From a virus (taxonomy: Duplodnaviria; Caudoviricetes), in IMG/VR virus record IMGVR_UViG_3300011113_000545, positions 1 through 52,322 of that record: DNA of 52,322 nucleotides, one strand, 5' to 3'. Position 1 is the stretch's first letter, and each line of letters starts with the position of its first letter. Under the pieces are notes generated by a model, which did no database searches, was not told the origin of the DNA, and was given only the letters and a program-made list of their open reading frames with translations. Both the position numbers and the translations under genes were made by a program. This document shows positions 7,607-52,110 of this stretch, in pieces.

Positions 7607-8980
7607 TTAATTGTCAGCTCGAGGAGTAAGTGCCTTGCTGAGACTTTGTCTGGTAGGCATTGTCTGACCTTCATTATTGACATAAGTGGAAGTATCGTTA
7701 ACAAAGATACTACGCTGAGTTTTGTTGTCTGGGCCTGGGGTAAGATTGGTACGAACACCGTCTTCGATTTTAATCCATCTTGTGCCATTATAGCGGAACA
7801 AACGATTGGGAACATAATCTGTTCTTAGAACATAGTCTCCAATGGTTGGACTAGCTGGAAAACTTGTTCCGGCAGTAACAGGCCATCCATTGGGGGGTAT
7901 ATCGTCGCCTCCAAGATATGCGGGCACATTAGAGTCTGGCGTAGTCGGTTGGGTATTTGTAAAATCCAAGGTTGAATCTACAAATAAATTTGTTAAATCC
8001 ACTGTTTGTCCAGTTGGGTCACCTGGACTACCGTCAGGGTTTACGGGTTCGATGTACAAATCATTAATGTCAGTGCCACTCTTTGGCACATTAATTTCCG
8101 CTTGCTGGATAATTGCGTCATTAATGGATATAAGTTTATCTAAAGTACTCACGTAGTTTCCTATAGGAGTATTATTGGCACTGTTTGGAACAAGCTGGTT
8201 AATGATGTCTTTATATTCTTGACTGTCTACTAGCGGGGTAAGTTTTACACGCCACAAATGCGGCCACCAAGTTTGACTAAATCCTTCTGCTGCAAAACTG
8301 GCATCTTGCACAACATAATACCTTTTTAACACTGCGGGTATATCTTCATTTAGCGGGTAATAATCTTTTTTATGCTGTAGTTCTAATACATCACCACTCA
8401 TAATCTTACGACCCAGAGATGCTACGGTGTCATTGAGATGAAATGTCATATAAACAGTGTCTGCACTTAGGAAGATACCAAATTGTTTTAAATCAAAATC
8501 GTTATCATTAACAGTATAAATGCCCCGAAGAGTATAGACGGAAGTATCATATTTTCGGTCTCTATTTTCTAAAAATAATAAATCCTGGATATTTAAAGCA
8601 CTTTGATTTTGATAAACGGGTTGAGTAGCATCTTTCCAGTATATATTAAGTGGTTGTCCGGATGTTATGGCAGAAATAACATTAGCACTTATAGTAACAG
8701 TGTTGATAGTTACATTTGTTCCTGTTATAATTGTATTTGCTGCGATACCTATACCACTTACAGTCTGACCAACTTCAAATGGTGCCACATTTCCAAAATA
8801 TAATGTTCTGCCAGAAGAAGTTGTATTTGCAGTAGGATACGCATTTGCTTGCACATTAGTACCGATATATTTGTGCAACAGCACACCCGTACCACCAATG
8901 GTAAATTCTTCTGATATTCTTTTATCAAAAAATTTGTAATCGTTTGTGTGGTTGTCGCGCCACATGCTAAGTCTGGGCAT
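7607..8980 (-). CDS. neck/head-closure protein (T4 gp14-like) with insertions
   Basis: FGIFLSADTVYMTFH..GDVLEL pattern and context next to the gp15-like gene; TAAATA upstream on the minus strand (~9001-9006). Confidence 0.55.
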   Translation of the reverse strand: MPRLSMWRDNHTNDYKFFDKRISEEFTIGGTGVLLHKYIGTNVQANAYPTANTTSSGRTLYFGNVAPFEVGQTVSGIGIAANTIITGTNVTINTVTISANVISAITSGQPLNIYWKDATQPVYQNQSALNIQDLLFLENRDRKYDTSVYTLRGIYTVNDNDFDLKQFGIFLSADTVYMTFHLNDTVASLGRKIMSGDVLELQHKKDYYPLNEDIPAVLKRYYVVQDASFAAEGFSQTWWPHLWRVKLTPLVDSQEYKDIINQLVPNSANNTPIGNYVSTLDKLISINDAIIQQAEINVPKSGTDINDLYIEPVNPDGSPGDPTGQTVDLTNLFVDSTLDFTNTQPTTPDSNVPAYLGGDDIPPNGWPVTAGTSFPASPTIGDYVLRTDYVPNRLFRYNGTRWIKIEDGVRTNLTPGPDNKTQRSIFVNDTSTYVNNEGQTMPTRQSLSKALTPRADN

Positions 8981-9014
8981 TTTTGATTCCGTTTATTGTA
9001 TATTTATGGTTATG

Positions 9015-9043
9015 TTGACATAAAAAACCGTTTCTGCTATAAT
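9015..9043 (+). promoter_or_regulatory. sigma70-type early promoter
   Basis: TTGACA-17 nt-TATAAT, perfect consensus. Confidence 0.85.
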
Positions 9044-9049
9044 AACAAA

Positions 9050-9319
9050 ATGGACTATCAACATTTGGATCTAATAAATCGAATTGTCGACTGTGACAAA
9101 TTAGTCCGCGCTTACCCTTTTGGACAGACAAAACGAGATCTTACTAAAATGTATACTAATGTTATGTCTTTAAATAATGAAAGAGACAAAGCCTTAGTGG
9201 AATGTCGTCGATTGGGCAAAATCACTGTCGAATACAAAAAGAAACAGGCCGAATTAGAACTGGCCTTGGGAAATTTAGAAAGCTATATAACTATGGCAAT
9301 TTTAATTAAACCGGAGTAA
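9050..9319 (+). CDS. hypothetical protein
   Basis: ATG just downstream of the promoter is the more likely start than 8996. Confidence 0.65.
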   Translation: MDYQHLDLINRIVDCDKLVRAYPFGQTKRDLTKMYTNVMSLNNERDKALVECRRLGKITVEYKKKQAELELALGNLESYITMAILIKPE

Positions 9320-32341: not shown

Positions 32342-33586
32342 ATGCCAAAATATTTTCCAATAAAAACAGATACGTCATGCAGATTAAAATGGGCATGGAG
32401 TACAATTTATTTAAACAGTGGAAAAACATCATCGTGTCATAGAGCAAGTCAAAGTTCTATAGATGTATCAAATTTTGAAAATTTTCATAATACAACTGAG
32501 AAGCTAAGTGCTCGGGCTGAAATGTTAGAAGGCAAGTGGCCAACTGGTACTTGTGAGTATTGTAAAAGTATAGAAGAATCTGGTGGAATAAGCGACAGGA
32601 TGTTTCAAAATCAAATACCGGAAATATATCCTAAGGTACTAGATAGCAATCCTAATAAACTTGATGTTCAGCCAGTTATTTTAGAAGTATTTTTTTCTAA
32701 TGCCTGCAATTTAAAATGTGTGTACTGTAATGGTTCGTTTAGTTCTGCCATACAAGCAGAAGATAATAAATTTGGCGGTAGTATAATTACACGTCTGAAT
32801 AACATCGATTCGGGTAATTATAAAGAACTTGTACCTCTATTTTGGAAATGGTTTAAAGAAAATAGCACATCGCTGCTACGTTTGCAAATCGCAGGCGGTG
32901 AGCCATTTCTTCAAAAAGACTTTTTTTTATTGATTGAATATTTTGAATCAAACCCTCATCCGAACTTAGAATTTAATATTATTACAAATTTAAATATAAA
33001 AAATAATATAGTTAAAGACACTGCAACGAGACTTGCAAAATTATCAGCTGATGGAAAAGTTAAACGAGTAGACATACAAGTCAGCGTTGACTGTTGGGGT
33101 AAGAGTCAAGAGTATGTTCGTTCTGGATTTAATCATTTTCAATTTGATGAAAATATGAAAACAATAGTTGAACTAAAATATCTAAGAATTGGATTATTGT
33201 CGACTATATGTTCATTGACTATACACGACATGGAACATCTGGCGACGAAATATAAAGAGTGGAGTAAAAATAAAGAAATTTTTTGGTACATGCATTTAGT
33301 ACTGCCCGAAGACAGTATTTTTAGTCCTGTAAATTTTGATCTAAGCGTGTTCGAGCATTCATTGAATAATGTATATAAAGCTATTCCAAAAGATTCATGG
33401 GACCAGCAGCAAACTCTAAATGTATTGTCTGGAATTATAGAAAAGATAAAACAAAAATCAAATTCTAATTTAAAACTTCAACAAAATCTGATTTCTTACT
33501 TAGAGCAGAATGATTTACGCCGTGGACTAAATTGGAGAGAATATTTCCCATGGTTAGATAAAATGGTTAAAAATAATGTGGTATAA
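32342..33586 (+). CDS. radical SAM protein (N-terminal twitch/SPASM-like Cys cluster)
   Basis: CNLKCVYC, GGEP, N-terminal C..W, CH, C..C..E. Confidence 0.88.
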   Translation: MPKYFPIKTDTSCRLKWAWSTIYLNSGKTSSCHRASQSSIDVSNFENFHNTTEKLSARAEMLEGKWPTGTCEYCKSIEESGGISDRMFQNQIPEIYPKVLDSNPNKLDVQPVILEVFFSNACNLKCVYCNGSFSSAIQAEDNKFGGSIITRLNNIDSGNYKELVPLFWKWFKENSTSLLRLQIAGGEPFLQKDFFLLIEYFESNPHPNLEFNIITNLNIKNNIVKDTATRLAKLSADGKVKRVDIQVSVDCWGKSQEYVRSGFNHFQFDENMKTIVELKYLRIGLLSTICSLTIHDMEHLATKYKEWSKNKEIFWYMHLVLPEDSIFSPVNFDLSVFEHSLNNVYKAIPKDSWDQQQTLNVLSGIIEKIKQKSNSNLKLQQNLISYLEQNDLRRGLNWREYFPWLDKMVKNNVV

Positions 33587-36157: not shown

Positions 36158-36235
<78 letters not shown>

Positions 36236-38438: not shown

Positions 38439-38503
38439 TAGGATAGTTACAGCAAACTTCAAGCTAAACTTTATGGTTGTCTAGCGACAAAAGCTATCCT
38501 GTT
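38439..38503 (+). ncRNA. CAGCAA-stem RNA, copy 1
   Basis: TAGGATAGT-TA-CAGCAA ... GCTATCCTGTT closing stem. Confidence 0.6.
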
Positions 38504-38510
38504 ATATTAT

Positions 38511-43331: not shown

Positions 43332-44936
43332 ATGATACACGGCATAATTCTCACAGACAATACTTTTAGTAACATGGACATTACTTGTCATAGAGGATCT
43401 GGTGCCCATAAAATTGCAACTCATCTAAGAAATCATGGCTATAACATAGAAGTTGTCGATTATTGTTTAAGCTGGTCACAGGAAGAATTAGAATTATTAC
43501 TGGCTAAACTGATTTCAAAAGATACATTGTTTTTAGGTATAGGCAGTAATTTATTTTTAGATAGATCCCACTTTGACAATAACATTCTTTGGTTTAAAAA
43601 CAAATATCCTAAGATAGCAGTTATTCTAGGGGGAAATCAAACTTTGTCACGTTCTACCCCAGGAGTTGATTATTATGTGGAAGGGTATGCAGAAAATGCT
43701 ATACTGCACCTATTAGAATATCTTCGGGGAAATATTAATAAAGATGCTATTCATTGGAGTGCTAATGCCGAAGGCAAAAATCTAATAGATGCTCTTGGTA
43801 ATTACGGCCAAGTTGACACCAGGGATTTAAGTATACAATACTTACCTTCGGATTTTTTACAACCTGAACAAACACTGGGTCTAGAAACAGCAAGAGGCTG
43901 TATCTTTAAATGCAAATTTTGCACATATCCATTGATCGGAAAAAGTAAATTAGACTATATTAGAGATTCTTCTACCATTGTTCGAGAACTACAACAAAAT
44001 TACGATCAATGGGGAATTACAAATTATCTAATCAACGAAGATACTTTTAATGACAGCATTGAAAAACTAGAGCTGCTTGAAAAAGCTATTACTAGTTTGC
44101 CTTTTAAAATTAATTTTACTGCGTATGCCAGATTGGATCTGATAGTAGCAAAACCTCATAGCATTGAATTACTCAGAAATATGGGTATGAAAGGTGTACA
44201 TTTCGGCATCGAAACTTTTAGTAAAGATGCTGGAAGGTTAGTGGGAAAAGGATTTTCGGGACAACGTCTTAAAGATGGATTATTATGGTGGAAAGAACAA
44301 ACACCAGACATTTCCACTGGATGCTCTTTGATAGTTGGGTTGCCAGGAGACACCAGCGATTATCATGCAGAAAATGAATGGTTTGCTAACAATGAAATTG
44401 ATTATTGGTTTTGGCAACCTTTATATATTACTAAGAATCAGCAATTCGTTTATTCGAGTGAGTTTAGTAAAGATTATAACAAGTATGGTCTTGAAATTAT
44501 GTCAGATTCTGAAGTGTCTGCTGAAGTTAGAAATCTTTGGAAATTAGAGTATAAATTTACAAAAAAATCTCATCCGTTTAGCTATAGATCGCTGCTCAAT
44601 GAGAACTTCAGAAGTAAAGTAAATTATTGGAAAGATATTAAATCTGGCCAAAATTATTTTACCGCACTAAAATTAAGTTGTGAACTTAATCAAAGTGTCA
44701 AAAATCAAAAGGTTAGTCCGTGGACTATGTTTGATTATGTAAGTTTAGGATACAAAATAGATGAAATAAGAACATGGGGTAAACATATCCCTGTTCCGCC
44801 TGTGCGTGAAATAAAAATTCAAGCAGATAACAGAATAAATGAATATAAACGCAAAAAACTTGCATATGATTACTTAGAATTTTATAGTCATAGGCAACAA
44901 TCAATTCGACGAACTATTCCTATAGTTCTACAGTAA
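43332..44936 (+). CDS. B12-binding-domain radical SAM protein
   Basis: ETARGCIFKCKFC, EDTFND, FGIET, LIVGLPG; N-terminal cobalamin-binding-like domain. Confidence 0.88.
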   Translation: MIHGIILTDNTFSNMDITCHRGSGAHKIATHLRNHGYNIEVVDYCLSWSQEELELLLAKLISKDTLFLGIGSNLFLDRSHFDNNILWFKNKYPKIAVILGGNQTLSRSTPGVDYYVEGYAENAILHLLEYLRGNINKDAIHWSANAEGKNLIDALGNYGQVDTRDLSIQYLPSDFLQPEQTLGLETARGCIFKCKFCTYPLIGKSKLDYIRDSSTIVRELQQNYDQWGITNYLINEDTFNDSIEKLELLEKAITSLPFKINFTAYARLDLIVAKPHSIELLRNMGMKGVHFGIETFSKDAGRLVGKGFSGQRLKDGLLWWKEQTPDISTGCSLIVGLPGDTSDYHAENEWFANNEIDYWFWQPLYITKNQQFVYSSEFSKDYNKYGLEIMSDSEVSAEVRNLWKLEYKFTKKSHPFSYRSLLNENFRSKVNYWKDIKSGQNYFTALKLSCELNQSVKNQKVSPWTMFDYVSLGYKIDEIRTWGKHIPVPPVREIKIQADNRINEYKRKKLAYDYLEFYSHRQQSIRRTIPIVLQ

Positions 44937-44948
44937 TTTAATAATTTC

Positions 44949-45043
44949 GCCCCTATAGTTTAATGGTAGAACTCCGGCCTTATACACCGGCATCGGCGCC
45001 AGATTAGCGCACAGTCCAGGTTCGAATCCTGGTGGGGGTACCA
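44949..45043 (+). tRNA. tRNA-Ile(TAT) with long variable arm
   Basis: CCGGC-CTTATAC-ACCGG, ~25-nt variable region, ACCA. Confidence 0.8.
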
Positions 45044-45849: not shown

Positions 45850-47106
45850 TTAAATTTCAATATCTTTTAGTAATTTTGCTATAGTCGGAAATGTCTTAGT
45901 ATAATCGGTGCCACGACGTCGATCTAACTCAGTTAAGTATGTTTTTAGTTGACATTGTAAATTTGGATTAGATTGACTATGTGCTATCTCTTTGGCAATG
46001 CCTTCGAAATATTCTTTATATTTCATTTTGTCGGGATCTCCCATAGCATCAAATTTATCAATTGCTTGTTGATATCCCATGTTTAATAACATGGGGCCGA
46101 ATATAGTGGGATGAAAATATTTATGTCCTCCAGTTTTCATTAGAGACCAGTATACTGTTCTGACCCGACTCCAACTATTAATTTTTTCAACAAGATCTGG
46201 TAAACTCGGAATTGTTAGCGGCCCAAGGGCAGAGTTAATGTTTAGCACTATATCTGTGTTGTTTAGAACATATTCAAAATTCTTTTCAAAAAGATCCAGC
46301 TGTAGACCATAGCGAACATATTCTGCGGGTTTACCCCAACAATCGATGCTGCCTATTAGATTAATTTGATTTAATTGGGAATTGATTTTTAATTTTTGTA
46401 TCTGATCAATTTGATATTTAAATTTTTCATGATCTATTGTAAGATTACTAAAGAATACAAGATCTAGATTGGGTAGCTTTTTAGTTTCTATAAAATTTAA
46501 TAACCGTTGTGTTTCTTTTTGTATGAACGGCTCGCCCCCTAAAATTAGAAGTTTATTCAGATTCTGAATGTTTTTATCTAGCCACTTAAACATTTGATCG
46601 GTTGCATCAGAAAAATTTTCAGGTATTTGAAATTCTGAATTAATATGAACTCCATTTTTATTGAAGGTACCAAATTTAATATTTTCTTGATTAATTTGAC
46701 TGCTAAACTTGGGCGTACAATATGTGCATTTTAGATTACAAACATTGCTAAAATAAATTTCTAGTATTCTTGGGCTTATATTTACCGCTGTTAAATCTGT
46801 ATCTAGTTCAGGTGGTGCAGTAATTCCTGGAAAATCTAAATGTATCATACGGTCGCTGGTTCCGCCGGCAACTTCGATAGACTTACAATGTTCGCAGCCG
46901 CGCCCAGGCCATTTGCCTTCGAGCATTAATCGGCGATCCTGAAGTTTTTCGGGAGTATTATGAAAATTAAAAGTGTTTAAATCAAACTTGGTTTGATTAA
47001 CTCTATGACAACTTGCAGTAGACAAAGACGTAAGAAATACTGTGCTATGACTCCATTTTAATTGACATGCAGTCGCAGTTTTAATCGGAAATATTTTTTG
47101 ATTCAC
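45850..47106 (-). CDS. radical SAM protein, paralog of 32342-33586
   Basis: CNLKCTYC, GGEP, FPIKT..C.LKW; GTG at 47106 is the likely start because the longer call overlaps a tRNA. Confidence 0.85.
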   Translation of the reverse strand: MNQKIFPIKTATACQLKWSHSTVFLTSLSTASCHRVNQTKFDLNTFNFHNTPEKLQDRRLMLEGKWPGRGCEHCKSIEVAGGTSDRMIHLDFPGITAPPELDTDLTAVNISPRILEIYFSNVCNLKCTYCTPKFSSQINQENIKFGTFNKNGVHINSEFQIPENFSDATDQMFKWLDKNIQNLNKLLILGGEPFIQKETQRLLNFIETKKLPNLDLVFFSNLTIDHEKFKYQIDQIQKLKINSQLNQINLIGSIDCWGKPAEYVRYGLQLDLFEKNFEYVLNNTDIVLNINSALGPLTIPSLPDLVEKINSWSRVRTVYWSLMKTGGHKYFHPTIFGPMLLNMGYQQAIDKFDAMGDPDKMKYKEYFEGIAKEIAHSQSNPNLQCQLKTYLTELDRRRGTDYTKTFPTIAKLLKDIEI

Positions 47107-47153
47107 TGAATACTTAGCTAAGTTACTTAATGCAAGTTTAAAACATTTAACAT

Positions 47154-47229
47154 AGAAGCGTAGCATAGCGGCTAATGCGCCACCTTCATACGGTGTTTAT
47201 CGTGGGTTCGAGTCCCACCGCTTCTACCA
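47154..47229 (+). tRNA. tRNA-Met(CAT), elongator-like
   Basis: CCACC-TTCATAC-GGTGT, ACCA. Confidence 0.88.
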
Positions 47230-48533: not shown

Positions 48534-48594
48534 TAGGATGCGGACAGCAATTTAAAAACTCAAACTCATAATTTGACTAAAAATGCATCCTGTT
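48534..48594 (+). ncRNA. CAGCAA-stem RNA, copy 2 (cargo: CAT anticodon stem-loop)
   Basis: TAGGATGC-GGA-CAGCAA...TCAAA-CTCATAA-TTTGA...GCATCCTGTT. Confidence 0.65.
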
Positions 48595-48622
48595 GTATAA
48601 TATACACTTTAATGGACAAAGC

Positions 48623-48838
48623 ATGATTCCTCTTATAGCTAAAAAAGAAATAGCACAAGAAAGATATAATATTTGTAAAGCCTGTGAAAGTTTTACTGCG
48701 GCAAAAATATGCAAAGAATGTAATTGTTTTATGCCAGTTAAAGTTAAAATAGCTCATGCCTGGTGTCCCAAAACTAAATGGCTTAGTAAAATGGACCCTA
48801 GGGAACATCAAGCAGATGCGTATGAAAATTTAGAATAA
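48623..48838 (+). CDS. small Cys-rich protein
   Basis: R..IC..C..F...C..C.CFM..K......CP..KW; downstream of TTGACT-17-TATAAT (48573-48601). Confidence 0.65.
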   Translation: MIPLIAKKEIAQERYNICKACESFTAAKICKECNCFMPVKVKIAHAWCPKTKWLSKMDPREHQADAYENLE

Positions 48839-48860
48839 AGTTATATAAGACTATTTAGGT

Positions 48861-48931
48861 GTGACTATGTTGTAATGGTAGCAACCTAGACTGTGACTCT
48901 GGTAGTACGGGTTCGAATCCCGTTAGTCACC
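48861..48931 (+). tRNA. tRNA-His(GTG), no encoded CCA
   Basis: CTAGA-CTGTGAC-TCTGG, C73 discriminator. Confidence 0.85.
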
Positions 48932-48945
48932 CCTAAGTAGTTTAT

Positions 48946-49021
48946 GCCATAGTAGCTCCAATGGTAGAGCAGCGGACTGAAAATTCGTGTGTTACTGGTT
49001 CGAGTCCAGTCTATGGCACCA
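48946..49021 (+). tRNA. tRNA-Phe(GAA)
   Basis: GCGGA-CTGAAAA-TTCGT, ACCA. Confidence 0.92.
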
Positions 49022-49050
49022 ATAAATATTTTATATTGGAGGATCAAAAA

Positions 49051-49230
49051 ATGCAACCAAAACCCATTACATTTAAAAACTCTTTCAATGGCGAACAATG
49101 GATCTGTGAAGATACTAAAAAAATCAAATTGATCGATGGGGTTAGTTATCTAACGGTACACAAGCCTGGAAGTTATCGCATGGTTTTGATGCGTAAAGAC
49201 AGTCTAGTCCCATTAAAAACTAAACAGTGA
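49051..49230 (+). CDS. hypothetical protein
   Basis: SD GGAGG, ATG at 49051, 59 aa. Confidence 0.6.
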   Translation: MQPKPITFKNSFNGEQWICEDTKKIKLIDGVSYLTVHKPGSYRMVLMRKDSLVPLKTKQ

Positions 49231-49306
49231 GCTGATGTGGCACAGTAGGTAGCGCATTTGCATGGTAAGCAAAAGGTCCCCAGTTCGATTCTGGGCATCA
49301 GCACCA
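49231..49306 (+). tRNA. tRNA-Thr(GGT)
   Basis: TTTGC-ATGGTAA-GCAAA, ACCA. Confidence 0.9.
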
Positions 49307-49308
49307 CA

Positions 49309-49383
49309 CTCGCTGTAGTTCAATGGATAGAACGGGGTCCTCCTAAGACTCAAATCCAGGTTCGATTCCTGGCAGTGAGGCCA
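49309..49383 (+). tRNA. tRNA-Arg(CCT)
   Basis: GGGTC-CTCCTAA-GACTC, GCCA. Confidence 0.9.
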
Positions 49384-49398
49384 TTATAAATATAACAT

Positions 49399-50214
49399 AT
49401 GATCACTTATTTAAGATTCGTCGACCCAGATCAAATAGCAGTGTCGCATGTTGCAATAAAAGTTAAACTATTAATTCTTATAAGTTTTATTACAACTGTA
49501 TGGTGGGTAATCACTAACAACGAAACTTGGTGGGTAAATTTTTTATATTTTTACGTTTCTTTGTTGGCTGGCAGAGTTTTTGTAGAGATAGGATTACATA
49601 GGTTTTTTAGTCACAAAAGCTTTAAAACTTCTGAATTTAAAAAAAATTTTTTGTTGATTGGCGGAACCTTAATAGGATTAGGTAGTTGTATATCTTATGT
49701 AGGAGTACACAGAACTCATCATAGGTACTCCGACACTCCCAAAGATCCTCATAGTCCTGCTAATATAGGAATAATTAAAACTTGGTTAACAATGTGGGAT
49801 AAAAACTGGGTAGTTGATTTTTCTTCAGTTAAAGATTTATTAAGAGACCCATTGCAAATGTTTTTGCACAGACACTATTTTAAAATTATAATATGTTGGA
49901 TACTACTACTAAGTTTGATTTCCCTTATTATAAGTTCGATAGTTCCGTTGTTACTCTTATTTGCACTACCGAATCTAATGACATTCATTACAGCGGGTTT
50001 TACTAATGCCATCGGGCATACAGTAGGTTACAGAAATTTTGACACAGATGACCGTAGTACAAATCAATATTTTACTAGATTTTTACTTTTAAGTGCAGGA
50101 CTACACAATAATCATCATGCATATCCCAATGCTTGGAATTTTAATGTTCGTAGCAAGTGGTTTGAGTTTGATACCGAGGGAACATTAATCAAACATTTTT
50201 TCATAAAATATTGA
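49399..50214 (+). CDS. membrane fatty acid desaturase (delta-9-like)
   Basis: His boxes HRFFSH, HRTHH, HNNHH; DPHSP; transmembrane segments. Confidence 0.9.
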   Translation: MITYLRFVDPDQIAVSHVAIKVKLLILISFITTVWWVITNNETWWVNFLYFYVSLLAGRVFVEIGLHRFFSHKSFKTSEFKKNFLLIGGTLIGLGSCISYVGVHRTHHRYSDTPKDPHSPANIGIIKTWLTMWDKNWVVDFSSVKDLLRDPLQMFLHRHYFKIIICWILLLSLISLIISSIVPLLLLFALPNLMTFITAGFTNAIGHTVGYRNFDTDDRSTNQYFTRFLLLSAGLHNNHHAYPNAWNFNVRSKWFEFDTEGTLIKHFFIKY

Positions 50215-50238
50215 AATAAAATTATTCAGAAATACTGC

Positions 50239-50745
50239 TCATTTATTAAGAAATTTCTCCATAGCCCAATATTCTGAGCCCAGCGGAGTCCAACGATTGG
50301 TCCAATCAATTTTACTATCATATCTGAATTGATCATCATTTACTTTATCAATCGGATCTTCAAGAGATATTAAGCTAGGATGACTAAACGTTAAAAAATT
50401 AATATAATTTTTTCTCGTCAATGACAGTAATCCGATGTTGCTGTGATGAACACATATGTCCCAAGCAGCACCCCCAATTAACCAATGCCCTGCAACAGAT
50501 GTGGAATCGAAATGTAATTCTAAATCCTCCCAACTTTTGCAGATTAGATGCTCGCCCGGCAATGCTTTTAAATTCTCTGCTAGGTTTTCAATAGATGACA
50601 CAATATACTGATATTCTATATTATTTAGAATAAATTGTTCTAACTGAGAATAAAACTGTGAATATTCTGGATGTTGATCTAACCACGGTTCCCCCCAACA
50701 ATCTATTAGAATTATACCCGTTACTTGAAATTTTTTCATTGACAA
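50239..50745 (-). CDS. hypothetical protein, isochorismatase-like fold possible
   Basis: GIILIDCW N-terminus and G.AW..CV motif. Confidence 0.5.
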   Translation of the reverse strand: MSMKKFQVTGIILIDCWGEPWLDQHPEYSQFYSQLEQFILNNIEYQYIVSSIENLAENLKALPGEHLICKSWEDLELHFDSTSVAGHWLIGGAAWDICVHHSNIGLLSLTRKNYINFLTFSHPSLISLEDPIDKVNDDQFRYDSKIDWTNRWTPLGSEYWAMEKFLNK

Positions 50746-50776
50746 TAAATTAAAAAAAACATATACTAATATTTAC

Positions 50777-50851
50777 CTGGCGTTAGTTCAATGGACAGAA
50801 CAGTAGCCTTCTAAGCTATAAATACAGGTTCGATTCCTGTACGCCGGACCA
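50777..50851 (+). tRNA. tRNA-Arg(TCT)
   Basis: GTAGC-CTTCTAA-GCTAT, ACCA; promoter TTGACA-17-TATACT at 50739-50767. Confidence 0.92.
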
Positions 50852-50855
50852 GTTT

Positions 50856-50972
50856 TAGGATACATACAGCAAAACTATCACAAACGATAGGTAGTTGGTT
50901 CGACTCCAACATTTGGCTTCAAGCCAGATTAGCTCATTTGGTAGAGCATTCGTCAAACGAAGGTATCCTGCT
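50856..50972 (+). ncRNA. CAGCAA-stem RNA, copy 3 (cargo: circularly permuted tRNA, YrlA-like order)
   Basis: TAGGATAC-ATA-CAGCAA; T arm GTTGG-TTCGACT-CCAAC, acceptor ATTTGGC-TTCAA-GCCAGAT, D arm GCTC-ATTTGGTA-GAGC; GTATCCTGCT. Confidence 0.75.
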
Positions 50973-50986
50973 ATTTTTTGACCATT

Positions 50987-51104
50987 TAGGTTCTTTTCAG
51001 CAATTTTATTAATCTTTCTGTAAAAAAGACGGTCCAGGTTCGAATCCTGGCAGCAGGTTGGTCACTGCTGTGGTGTAATGGTAGCACAAAAATGAGAACC
51101 TGTT
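50987..51104 (+). ncRNA. CAGCAA-stem RNA, copy 4 (cargo: permuted tRNA-Tyr-like)
   Basis: TAGGTTCT-TTT-CAGCAA; TCTTT-CTGTAAA-AAAGA, T arm CCAGG-TTCGAAT-CCTGG, CAGCAG/CTGCTG, D arm GTGT-AATGGTA-GCAC; AGAACCTGTT. Confidence 0.75.
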
Positions 51105-51107
51105 ATT

Positions 51108-51183
51108 GTCCGGTTAGTTCAGTGGTACGAACGCTACCTTGACACGGTAGAGGTCACTGGTTCGATCCCAGTATCGGACACCA
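51108..51183 (+). tRNA. tRNA-Val(GAC)
   Basis: CTACC-TTGACAC-GGTAG, ACCA. Confidence 0.92.
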
Positions 51184-51242
51184 AAATAAAAATAAATTTT
51201 ATTAAAGTATAAATACATATATGTATTCATCTGGAGATTATT

Positions 51243-51521
51243 ATGATTTTTACTAAAAAAGTTGCTGGCACAATGACAGAAGAAACAGGTCAGCAAGTGG
51301 CAGCAAATGTATCGTACATGCTCGCTTTTGACGAATTTATGGATCAATTAGTAAGTCAGGGTAAGACCGACGGTATGGTCAGTGTATTTCATAATGATGG
51401 GTTTGTAGTACGTGAACGAAGATTTACAGATCAATCTGCTGTAGACGAATATCTGACATATTGTAATACCAGACAACTAGAAGCCGGATACGATATTTCT
51501 TTGGTTCCGGGCGACATCTGA
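51243..51521 (+). CDS. hypothetical protein
   Basis: TATAAATA upstream, SD GGAG. Confidence 0.65.
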   Translation: MIFTKKVAGTMTEETGQQVAANVSYMLAFDEFMDQLVSQGKTDGMVSVFHNDGFVVRERRFTDQSAVDEYLTYCNTRQLEAGYDISLVPGDI

Positions 51522-51553
51522 TAATCAAACATGCATTTTAATAGATTATTTTG

Positions 51554-51582
51554 TTGACTTTAATCTATCTATTCTATATAAT
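51554..51582 (+). promoter_or_regulatory. sigma70-type promoter for the ncRNA/DUF2828 unit
   Basis: TTGACT-17-TATAAT. Confidence 0.7.
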
Positions 51583-51600
51583 AAGAACTTAATAAATTTT

Positions 51601-51715
51601 AAGGCTAGGTTCAGCAAGTAACCATTACATGGACAGGTGAACAGCGATAACTTCAAGTTTACCGGGGTGAGTTTCGATTTCTCACTGTAATCAAAAAGTA
51701 GACAACTAGCCTGTT
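51601..51715 (+). ncRNA. CAGCAA-stem RNA, copy 5 (cargo: degenerate tRNA-like, UCA loop)
   Basis: AGGCTAG-GTT-CAGCAA ... CTAGCCTGTT; internal ATTACA/TGTAAT and GTGAG-TTTCGATTT-CTCAC. Confidence 0.65.
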
Positions 51716-51722
51716 ATTTTTT

Positions 51723-51981
51723 TGGATGAGTTCAGCACTTTAAAACATACTCTGACGCAATTACCATTGACAGCGGTAGAAGTACACAGTAGAAATACTG
51801 TTCTGGGAAACTAGACGCCCAAGGAATGGATGACAGCATGGAAAGACATACTATGTTGCTGGTAGCAGACACAATTACCAGATAGTCAACATGAATTGTT
51901 GATAGGGTCACGGTAACTGAACCGATATACAGGGGATTAGGCGGACCAGAAAATAAACATACCAGTTTCGATCATCCAGCT
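51723..51981 (+). ncRNA. CAGCAA-stem RNA, copy 6 (cargo: ~230-nt multi-hairpin RNA)
   Basis: TGGATGA-GTT-CAGCA ... TCATCCAGCT; GAAA-capped hairpins inside. Confidence 0.55.
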
Positions 51982-52018
51982 ATTGACTTAATTAATTTTT
52001 CTAGTAAAATACATTTTT

Positions 52019-52083
52019 TAGGATACTACCAGCAATTTTTATACATTAGACTTCTAATCTAAACCGTAAAAATGTATCCTGTT
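52019..52083 (+). ncRNA. CAGCAA-stem RNA, copy 7 (cargo: TCT anticodon stem-loop)
   Basis: TAGGATAC-TAC-CAGCAA...TTAGA-CTTCTAA-TCTAA...GTATCCTGTT. Confidence 0.68.
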
Positions 52084-52110
52084 GCATAAAATCAAAGAAA
52101 GGAGAGTACT

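Follow-up and report, generated by a model that had tools for sequence, protein, structure and literature searches.

The viral contig IMGVR_UViG_3300011113_000545 (Duplodnaviria; Caudoviricetes), which we analysed over its whole length of 52,322 bases (the window; completeness rating about 15%), contains seven copies of an RNA element in which different cargos are displayed on one conserved stem, here termed the handle, and ends within a gene for a DUF2828+vWA protein with a predicted Ro60-like fold. These elements are probably Y-RNA-like partner RNAs of this divergent Ro protein, with the handle as the docking site and the DUF2828+vWA protein as the partner. The evidence that carries this reading is the RNA family itself, its covariation, its strand and position with respect to the gene, the fold of the protein and the co-occurrence of element and gene across distant viruses.

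The handle family and the adjoining gene

A script scan of the window for a 7-bp stem, 3 nucleotides (nt), CAGCA, a cargo and the returning stem found seven copies, all on the + strand (Table 1). The scan reproduced the copy numbering of an earlier note on this DNA, which had described tRNA parts displayed on a conserved stem, and the stem was indeed common to all seven copies. All share the same order of parts: a 7-bp stem that covaries is followed by 3 nt, CAGCA(A) and a variable cargo, and behind the returning stem comes G-Y-U-R. Their stems differ by paired changes (AGGATAG, AGGATGC, AGGATAC, AGGTTCT, AGGCTAG and TGGATGA), and as cargo they carry a bare hairpin, a tRNA-like module in permuted order or a larger fold. 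What the earlier note had overlooked is the main context, namely that the CAGCA stem is a family-wide handle beside a Ro60-like gene in phages of many hosts.

The handle consensus derived from 130 distinct copies in relatives was UUUU / A-G-G-W-U-N-N / N-U-W / CAGCA-A ... A-rich / N-N-A-W-C-C-U / G-U-U-R. Positions G2, G3 and U5 of the stem were invariant (100%) and positions 4, 6 and 7 variable, the pairing of the latter with their partners and the invariance of CAGCA being requirements of the scan. The base after CAGCA was A in 95% of the copies and the middle linker base was U in 82%, and 3' of the stem (...CC-U-G-U-U-R) the G was followed by U in 92% and then by U in 100%. A pseudoknot between CAGCA and the 3' tail, which in this clade could form with U-G-Y-U-G, was considered and rejected, since the pairing is not kept in distant phages, whose tails are GAUA, GACA, GGUA, GUAA or GUAC; it is also sterically implausible, with a zero-length linker behind a 7-bp stem.

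The complete protein (471 amino acids) was found in a related contig (L002, 6026-7438) and is 100% identical to the open reading frame (ORF) of the window over the 70 residues that the two share. Pfam assigned DUF2828, DUF7788 (vWA-type) and, weakly, VWA_2 (expect value (E) up to 0.1); NCBIfam gave no match, and a search of the Protein Data Bank (PDB) with the single protein sequence returned nothing relevant. The protein matched PHROG 850, which bears the name 'RNA-binding protein', and mycobacteriophage annotators name its homologues 'Ro-like RNA binding protein'. A structure model from the single sequence reached a predicted local distance difference test (pLDDT) of 42, and the model was rebuilt with AlphaFold from a 131-sequence alignment, giving a pLDDT of 93.5. 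When the latter was compared with the PDB by Foldseek, the best 13 matches were all Ro60/TROVE proteins over the full length (E 2.8e-9 to 1.8e-5, template modelling (TM) score 0.44-0.64), from Xenopus, human, Deinococcus (Rsr) and Thermus phage phiLo, while the lower-ranked matches covered vWA domains only. The model predicts the Ro60/TROVE architecture, in which a ring of HEAT repeats leads into a vWA domain bearing a metal-ion-dependent adhesion site (MIDAS) motif, and the MIDAS residues D274, S276 and S278 were invariant in the 131 sequences. Taken together, the full-length structural matches, the invariant MIDAS and a weak sequence-profile match to Ro60 indicate that the gene encodes a predicted divergent Ro60-like ring protein.

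To relate the elements to the gene, we applied the strict pattern to the window and 80 related viral loci, where it gave 195 matches on the gene's strand and none on the other; two of these are plainly spurious (stems AATTTAT and TTGTCAA) and 12 span two adjacent elements. Copies 3-7 lie on the strand of the Ro-like gene, 91 to 1254 nt upstream of its ATG. At least one element was present no more than 700 nt upstream of the gene in 67 of 69 loci, and a short element stood 70-100 nt before the ATG in 60 of 77. Approximately 33 of the 45 distinct versions of the latter have a -35/-10 pair with the -10 box ending 8-9 nt before the element, as judged by eye on the printed flanks; the promoter reads TTGACA/TTTACA-17-TATAAT in most of the 45, and the element ends about 27 nt before the ATG. 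Given this distance to the -10 box in most distinct versions, the element forms the very 5' end of the gene's transcript, and copy 7 is also the 5' leader of the Ro-like gene's mRNA.

The association was also examined in 10 distant loci with proteins roughly 21-52% identical to the queries, and it persists over this distance: Aeh1, Vibrio phage F86, Rhizobium phage RHph_I1_18, a viral contig (L085), two contigs of giant viruses (protein family mostly of Nucleocytoviricota), Listeria phage LMSP-25, Felix O1, mycobacteriophage LeBron and KVP40. Here the strict CAGCAA pattern matched 22 times on the gene's strand and twice on the other, whereas the count over 200 block shuffles averaged 1.5 and never exceeded 7, and replacing the 3-nt linker by any other length from 0 to 8 reduced the 22 matches to 1-7. 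Intergenic elements lie near the gene in eight of the ten loci. Rhizobium phage RHph_I1_18 and Listeria phage LMSP-25 each have three directly upstream of it, Felix O1 has four among tRNAs just 3' of it, LeBron has three in the gap past it, one of them tRNA-like, and in the giant-virus contigs the elements adjoin a tRNA. One giant-virus contig (L086, 4840-4960) holds more CAGCAA sites (e.g. GGAAGCACACAGCAA and GAGAGATTACAGCAA) whose stems are not closed by the strict scan, and the handle family may be larger and looser in giant viruses. KVP40 (L092, 3457-3496) and F86 (L083, 3955-3996) have a 6-bp handle whose 3' strand contains the start codon of the gene and whose loop contains the ribosome-binding site, an arrangement that looks like a translational operator.

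Outside support, short of proof for the present phage, comes from Listeria phage CKA15. There, the three unannotated regions with the highest transcription are located no more than 2 kb upstream of an Rsr-like gene, and the authors raise Y RNAs as one explanation of these abundant transcripts (PMC12282133). The same source reports the Rsr-like protein CKA15_055, encoded outside the structural module, in purified virions (20 peptides, 57% coverage; PMC12282133), and the Ro-like protein may be carried into the cell.

Cargos of the seven elements

Copies 1, 2 and 7 have short cargos of 35-39 nt with a hairpin. Copy 7 is composed of AGGATAC (52020-26), TAC, CAGCA (52030-34), the hairpin TTAGA (52046-50), CTTCTAA (52051-57) and TCTAA (52058-62), and then GTATCCT (52074-80) and GTTG; copy 2 is composed of AGGATGC (48535-41), GGA, CAGCA (48545-49), the hairpin TCAAA (48560-64), CTCATAA (48565-71) and TTTGA (48572-76), and then GCATCCT (48585-91) and GTTG. 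Both hairpins were present exactly as the earlier note had written them, and, as it had observed, copy 2 has the same loop as the two CAT tRNAs at 36158 and 38116, which are tRNA-Met, and the loop of copy 7 equals the anticodon loop of tRNA-Arg(TCT) at 50777.

The 5-bp hairpin of copy 7 was paired in every cell of an alignment of 16 relatives, and two of its five pairs change on both sides (TTAGA/TCTAA, TTTGA/TCAAA and TTCAA/TTGAA). Its covariation score was matched by none of 500 shuffles, and this hairpin is more than chance. All 15 distinct members of the copy 7 subfamily have the 5-bp stem and a 7-nt loop, either CUUCUAA (9 members) or CUUUUAA (6), as in the phage's own tRNA-Arg(UCU) and tRNA-Lys(UUU), respectively; all 15 have the form of an anticodon stem-loop (5-bp stem, 7-nt loop, U at loop position 2, purine at position 6). 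A distant member has the loop CUCUUAA. In L002, a full tRNA-like copy stands on the stem AGGATAC with the loop CTTCTAA, both as in the short copy 7.

The A/U-rich hairpin of copy 2 was absent from the minimum-free-energy fold when the outer stem was fixed, and its 3' arm plus CT is the -35 box of a sigma-70-like site with 11 of 12 matches. In its subfamily the loops are of 7, 8 or 9 nt (ACCATAAA, ATCATAAA, TTTCATAAT, ACTCATAAA and others); these four have C/G/U-A-U-A-A in common and differ in length and in the CU start. The CU-NNN-AA form is rare in the subfamily, and among the loops just mentioned and their like CTGTAAA alone has it. A short element of LeBron (L091, 4952-5005) has the apical hairpin TTTCA-ATGGTAA-TGAAA, with arms identical to those of the copy 2 subfamily in the freshwater phages (TTTCA...TGAAA), so the sequence of the arms, beyond pairing alone, may matter.

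The reading of the earlier note required homologous loops to be constrained to 7-nt CU-NNN-AA. This held for the copy 7 subfamily in all 15 members and failed for the copy 2 subfamily, where loop length is variable and the CU start is not kept. Tabulated over 54 distinct short elements (81 instances, with the handle fixed in the folds), there were 21 with a 7-nt loop, 7 with an 8-nt loop and 14 with a 9-nt loop, the other 12 having a loop of another length or none.

Copies 3 and 4 contain the parts of a tRNA in permuted order, that is a hairpin, the T arm, a loop-closed acceptor stem and the D arm. Copy 3 matched the Rfam YrlA model (RF02553) end to end with 31.8 bits, its orthologues in two relatives (L039 and L045) did so with 30.8 bits, and the tRNA model picked up copy 4 with 28.8 bits over 50967-51058. 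We considered whether the two are permuted functional tRNA genes and rejected this, as all arms are present but the acceptor end is loop-closed and lacks CCA. The middle loop base of the copy 4-type hairpin takes all four values among close relatives (GUA, GCA, GAA and GGA readings). This hairpin, TCTTT-CTGNAAA-AAAGA, precedes the T arm and is present with little change in the Rhizobium phage (L084, 3865-3967; loop CTGTCAA). The copy 4 loop reads GUA, whereas the 32 tRNAs of the window include no tRNA-Tyr.

Copies 5 and 6 carry conserved structured RNA of 89 and 234 nt that belongs to no Rfam family. Across the window and its relatives the larger cargos, of about 89, 121-148, 165-176 and 207-234 nt, are conserved, clearly structured and outside any Rfam family, with recurring blocks such as GGTAG...CTGGAG...GTTGAAGG...TATTGAA.

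The 32 tRNA genes of the window are all on the + strand, and 20 of them have an anticodon loop of the CT...AA form; at gathering thresholds, an Rfam scan of the window returned tRNAs only. Promoter-like sites precede the unit of tRNA-Arg(TCT), copy 3, copy 4 and tRNA-Val, the pair of copies 5 and 6, and copy 7 (Table 1), and such sites are not enriched in the region (16 compared with 15.7 in shuffles). The tRNA-Ile(TAT) gene (44949-45043) is 95 nt long, far above the usual length of a class I tRNA, and may hold an insertion or a long extra arm. Three radical-SAM ORFs and one fatty-acid-desaturase ORF are interspersed with the array (32342-33586, 43332-44936, 45850-47166 and 49399-50214).

Table 1. 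Positions of the elements and neighbouring features in the window
Feature	Position	Strand	Description
Copy 1, short element	38440..38504	+	Stem AGGATAG/CTATCCT, TTA, CAGCA, 39-nt cargo, GTTA; starts 7 nt past tRNA-Ala
Copy 2, short element	48535..48595	+	7 nt past tRNA-Leu(CAA); tail GTTG; Rfam RF01414 14.9 bits
Sigma-70-like site TTGACT-17-TATAAT	48573..48601	+	11/12 matches; overlaps 3' half of copy 2; upstream of ORF at 48623
Promoter-like site	50739..50767	+	Ahead of the unit tRNA-Arg(TCT), copy 3, copy 4, tRNA-Val
tRNA-Arg(TCT)	50777..50851	+	Anticodon loop CTTCTAA, as copy 7 loop
Copy 3	50857..50973	+	Handle and tRNA-like module in permuted order
Copy 4	50988..51105	+	Handle and hairpin TCTTT-CTGTAAA-AAAGA, T arm, closed acceptor stem, D arm; tRNA-Val 3 nt on
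Promoter-like site TTGACT-17-TATAAT	51554..51582	+	20 nt 5' of copy 5
Copy 5	51602..51716	+	Handle AGGCTAG/CTAGCCT and 89-nt structured cargo, kept in relatives
Copy 6	51723..51982	+	Handle TGGATGA/TCATCCA and 234-nt structured cargo, kept in relatives
Promoter-like site TTGACT-16-TAAAAT	51983..52010	+	-10 box ends 9 nt 5' of copy 7
Copy 7, short element	52020..52084	+	Stem AGGATAC/GTATCCT, tail GTTG; Rfam RF01414 18.3 bits
Predicted Ro60-like DUF2828+DUF7788(vWA) protein, first 70 codons	52111..52322	+	Gene runs off the contig

Proposed function and alternative explanations

Since all copies share one handle and adjoin a Ro60-like gene, copies 2 and 7, the smallest members of the family, are likeliest to be Ro-partner RNAs and not free-standing decoys. 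The handle, a 6-7-bp stem starting with (A)GG, with the 5'-side bulge N-U-W-CAGCAA and the 3' tail G-U-U-R, would be the recognition site of the adjoining Ro60-like protein, and the elements would therefore act as Y RNAs do for Ro60. Docked by its handle on the DUF2828+vWA protein, an element would present its variable cargo as the working end, gating the protein or tethering other factors to it. Physical binding, processing, feedback and a role in tRNA or RNA repair are inferred here. The element RNAs would be co-transcribed with the phage tRNAs and then cut out. As copy 7 is the 5'-terminal structure of the Ro-like gene's mRNA, feedback is suggested, in which the protein probably binds its own leader. 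In L002, the Ro-like gene is followed on its 3' side by genes for a DSP-type phosphatase and an AAA_33, polynucleotide-kinase-like protein (7832-8407 and 8595-9059), and in Listeria phage LMSP-25 a gene annotated as a tRNA-splicing ligase lies 1.3 kb downstream of the Ro-like gene (L089, 6344-7555). Together with the tRNA array, these neighbours suggest a role in the upkeep of tRNA or other stable RNA, and the elements and their protein could serve tRNA or RNA repair or quality control during infection.

Several observations weigh against this partnership. On the protein side, Pfam TROVE (PF05731) did not match the DUF2828+vWA protein, and although a sequence-profile search ranked Ro60 first, the match was weak (E 0.02). 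On the RNA side, the motif N-U-W-CAGCAA with its 3' G-U-U-R tail differs from the GNCGAA/CGAA motif that marks the Ro60 sites of bacterial and phiLo Y RNAs (PMC4201824, PMC12135203), and the 30.8-31.8 bits obtained with RF02553 are far below its gathering score of 69. Among the distant loci, Aeh1 has no convincing element within 4 kb of the gene and Vibrio phage F86 has the 6-bp version of the handle only. The stems of the copies found are paired partly by construction, because the strict scan demands pairing, and it is the strand, shuffle and linker controls that carry the weight of the family claim. Finally, relatives of copies 3, 6 and 7 are represented among the contigs of a single freshwater RNA library, one contig, of depth 412, spanning 51786-52053 (copies 6-7) between adjoining contigs of depth 4-20; as contigs of this single library cannot rank expression or make transcript ends visible and could stem from DNA, they only hint that the elements are expressed in the phage.

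That copy 7 and its positional equivalents act in cis only, as a 5'-terminal stem-loop that stabilises the Ro-like mRNA or as an operator for autorepression, and are not freed as small RNAs, is possible, though on the whole doubtful. The position of the element 8-9 nt past a -10 box and about 27 nt before the ATG in the 45 distinct versions, and its presence at that place in 60 of 77 loci, are what such a leader structure would show, as is the 6-bp version of KVP40 and F86, which covers the start codon and holds the ribosome-binding site in its loop. However, the other six copies of the window and most copies elsewhere are outside the leader, either among tRNA genes or downstream (Felix O1, LeBron and the giant viruses), indicating that the handle has a use beyond one mRNA. 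For copy 7, an action in cis is compatible with a partnership with the Ro-like protein; it leaves copy 2 unexplained.

The earlier note had proposed that the bare hairpins are anticodon stem-loop decoys that sponge either tRNA-modifying enzymes or the host's anticodon nucleases of the PrrC, VapC or colicin-D type, and we consider this quite unlikely, whether the hairpins were to act alone or on the Ro-like protein. tRNA-Lys(UUU), tRNA-Arg and initiator tRNA-Met are known targets of anticodon nucleases, and the strict copy 7 subfamily reproduces with CUUCUAA and CUUUUAA the loops of the phage's tRNA-Arg(UCU) and tRNA-Lys(UUU), with CUCUUAA in a distant member. The near constancy of the extra hairpin TCTTT-CUGNAAA-AAAGA of the tRNA-like copies as far as the Rhizobium phage (loop CTGTCAA) also speaks for decoys, and the tRNA array, the kinase, the phosphatase and the RtcB-type ligase gene of one relative fit a conflict over tRNA integrity. 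Against this, of the 60 elements found at the conserved site upstream of the gene, 53 fall outside the copy 7 subfamily and 7 are anticodon-like; the short elements of the Listeria and Rhizobium phages contain no anticodon-like hairpin; the loops of the copy 2 subfamily range from 7 to 9 nt, and the copy 2 hairpin is thermodynamically marginal. In the tRNA-like copies, a middle 'anticodon' base that takes four values among close relatives would be odd for the mimic of a single tRNA. In addition, these RNAs may be without the base modifications found on real substrates, and among the papers listed by a literature search on anticodon nucleases and decoys there was no precedent for an RNA decoy of such an enzyme. 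Decoy activity is thus a possible job of the apical hairpin and not the best-supported one.

It is highly improbable that the short copies are decayed tRNA-like remnants or processing punctuation of the tRNA transcripts with no partner protein, and that copy 2 is conserved as a promoter at the DNA level: copy 2 does overlap the 11/12 promoter-like site, each copy in the tRNA array lies within a few bases of a tRNA, and L002 has the full tRNA-like copy with the stem AGGATAC and loop CTTCTAA of copy 7, but promoter-like matches are no commoner than in shuffles (16 vs 15.7), the six other copies have no promoter overlap, and, unlike remnants or host-specific signals, the sequence and spacing of the handle are conserved in giant viruses and among phages whose hosts are unrelated, in every case together with a DUF2828 gene.

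Comparison with known RNA systems

Among non-tRNA Rfam families, the best match for copies 2, 4 and 7, and for relatives, was the Class I RNA family of dictyostelids (RF01414). Class I RNAs are about 60 nt long, are encoded by many clustered genes and have a 6-bp end-joining stem with an invariant 5' G (PMC7919456). Beside the 5' strand stands the 11-nt motif CCUUACAGCAA, with near-invariant U3, C6, C9, A10 and A11, followed by a variable middle and a 3' end C-UGU, the C of which is paired with the 5' G; these RNAs are reported in dictyostelids only (PMC7919456). Their one known direct protein binder is the RNA-recognition motif (RRM) protein Rnp1A/CIBP, and DDB_G0281243, a protein of no known function, is among four proteins pulled down with a Class I RNA (bioRxiv 10.1101/2020.04.05.026054).

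As far as these descriptions go, the phage elements resemble Class I RNAs in their length of about 60 nt, the end-joining stem started by G, CAGCAA past the 5' strand, the variable middle, the 3' C-UGU and the many, often clustered copies per genome. The RF01414 model can be aligned over its whole length, starting at G2 in the stem of the phage element (GGAUGC AUU CAGCAA ... GCAUCC UG), scoring 14.9 (copy 2), 16.5 (copy 4), 18.3 (copy 7), 23.7 (L084) and 24.6 bits (L039 and L045), all under its gathering score of 41.5. The linker of the phage handle is 3 nt as opposed to the 4 described for Class I RNAs, which makes it a base shorter than in the 11-nt motif, and in the 130 copies the first two positions of that motif were unconserved. 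The likeness could have arisen through convergence. Regarding DUF2828 in Dictyostelium, the best 120 matches of a search with a giant-virus homologue bore viral or metagenomic names only, an atlas search gave Nucleocytoviricota and Uroviricota clusters, and a literature search for DDB_G0281243 found the Class I RNA preprint only.

We suggest, tentatively and as something that may well prove wrong, that the elements of phages and giant viruses and the Dictyostelium Class I RNAs form one old RNA class, whose handle (a stem started by G, CAGCAA and a 3' UGU) docks on Ro paralogues of the DUF2828 type, and that the phage ribonucleoprotein shows tRNA parts, be they entire tRNA-like modules or bare anticodon arms, to tRNA-directed enzymes of the host, among them anticodon nucleases. 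If this were true, two orphans, Pfam DUF2828 and the Class I RNAs, would gain a partner and a job; the handle at least suggests where to seek the function of the latter.

Phages are known to answer host anticodon nucleases with extra or variant phage tRNAs, and with tRNA repair by a kinase-phosphatase and a ligase. The present system is like these countermeasures in its very large tRNA array, its kinase-like and phosphatase-like genes and the tRNA-splicing-ligase gene of the Listeria relative. Such countermeasures, however, replace or mend tRNAs; the phage elements, with acceptor ends that are missing or loop-closed, cannot be charged. The present finding connects large tRNA arrays with a machine of RNA and protein that may protect or repair tRNAs in infection.

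In their anatomy the elements are like the Y RNAs. Bacterial Y RNAs are encoded beside a Ro-type gene on the same strand, often in several copies, with paired ends that bear a bulged protein site and a far end that mimics tRNA (PMC4201824), and their Ro60 site is a terminal stem with a GNCGAA(N)G / CGAA motif (PMC4201824, PMC12135203). Ro-like genes in phages, YrlA-like RNAs in some of them (22 phages with YrlA candidates are listed in Table S2 of PMC4201824) and possible Y RNAs in a Listeria phage are already known from publications or annotation. Literature searches on DUF2828 (where none of the papers, by their listings, concerned RNA partners), on Y RNA, YrlA and bacteriophages, on Class I RNA and on anticodon nucleases and decoys turned up no account of the CAGCAA handle, of its fixed association with DUF2828 genes in phages and giant viruses or of its likeness to Class I RNAs, although supplementary tables may list some of the elements as YrlA candidates.

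As described there, YrlA (RF02553) and Yrl1/Yrl2 of Thermus phage phiLo lie, like the phage elements, within a few kb of a ring-plus-vWA gene, on the same strand and often in multiple copies, and in both a stem formed between the two ends of the RNA bears the protein site, which is a putative one in the phage elements. The tRNA mimicry reported for YrlA (T arm, D arm, closed acceptor stem) corresponds to copies 3 and 4, whereas copies 2 and 7 hold a hairpin only and gave no match to RF02553. The phage elements differ from Y RNAs in that their partner would be of Pfam DUF2828 and not of TROVE, and in that their arrays reach seven copies amid 32 tRNA genes. By analogy, then, the phage elements appear to work like a Y RNA and are not members of RF02553.

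The handle is recognisable by eye and offers an identity for the very abundant unexplained RNAs reported in a Listeria phage, and the partnership is testable in Felix O1, KVP40, P100-like Listeria phages and mycobacteriophage LeBron. A classic pair in RNA quality control is formed by Ro60 and its Y RNAs; DUF2828, which spans 711 phage records, giant viruses and, by annotation, plants, would be a second, very widespread Ro-like branch with an RNA handle of its own.

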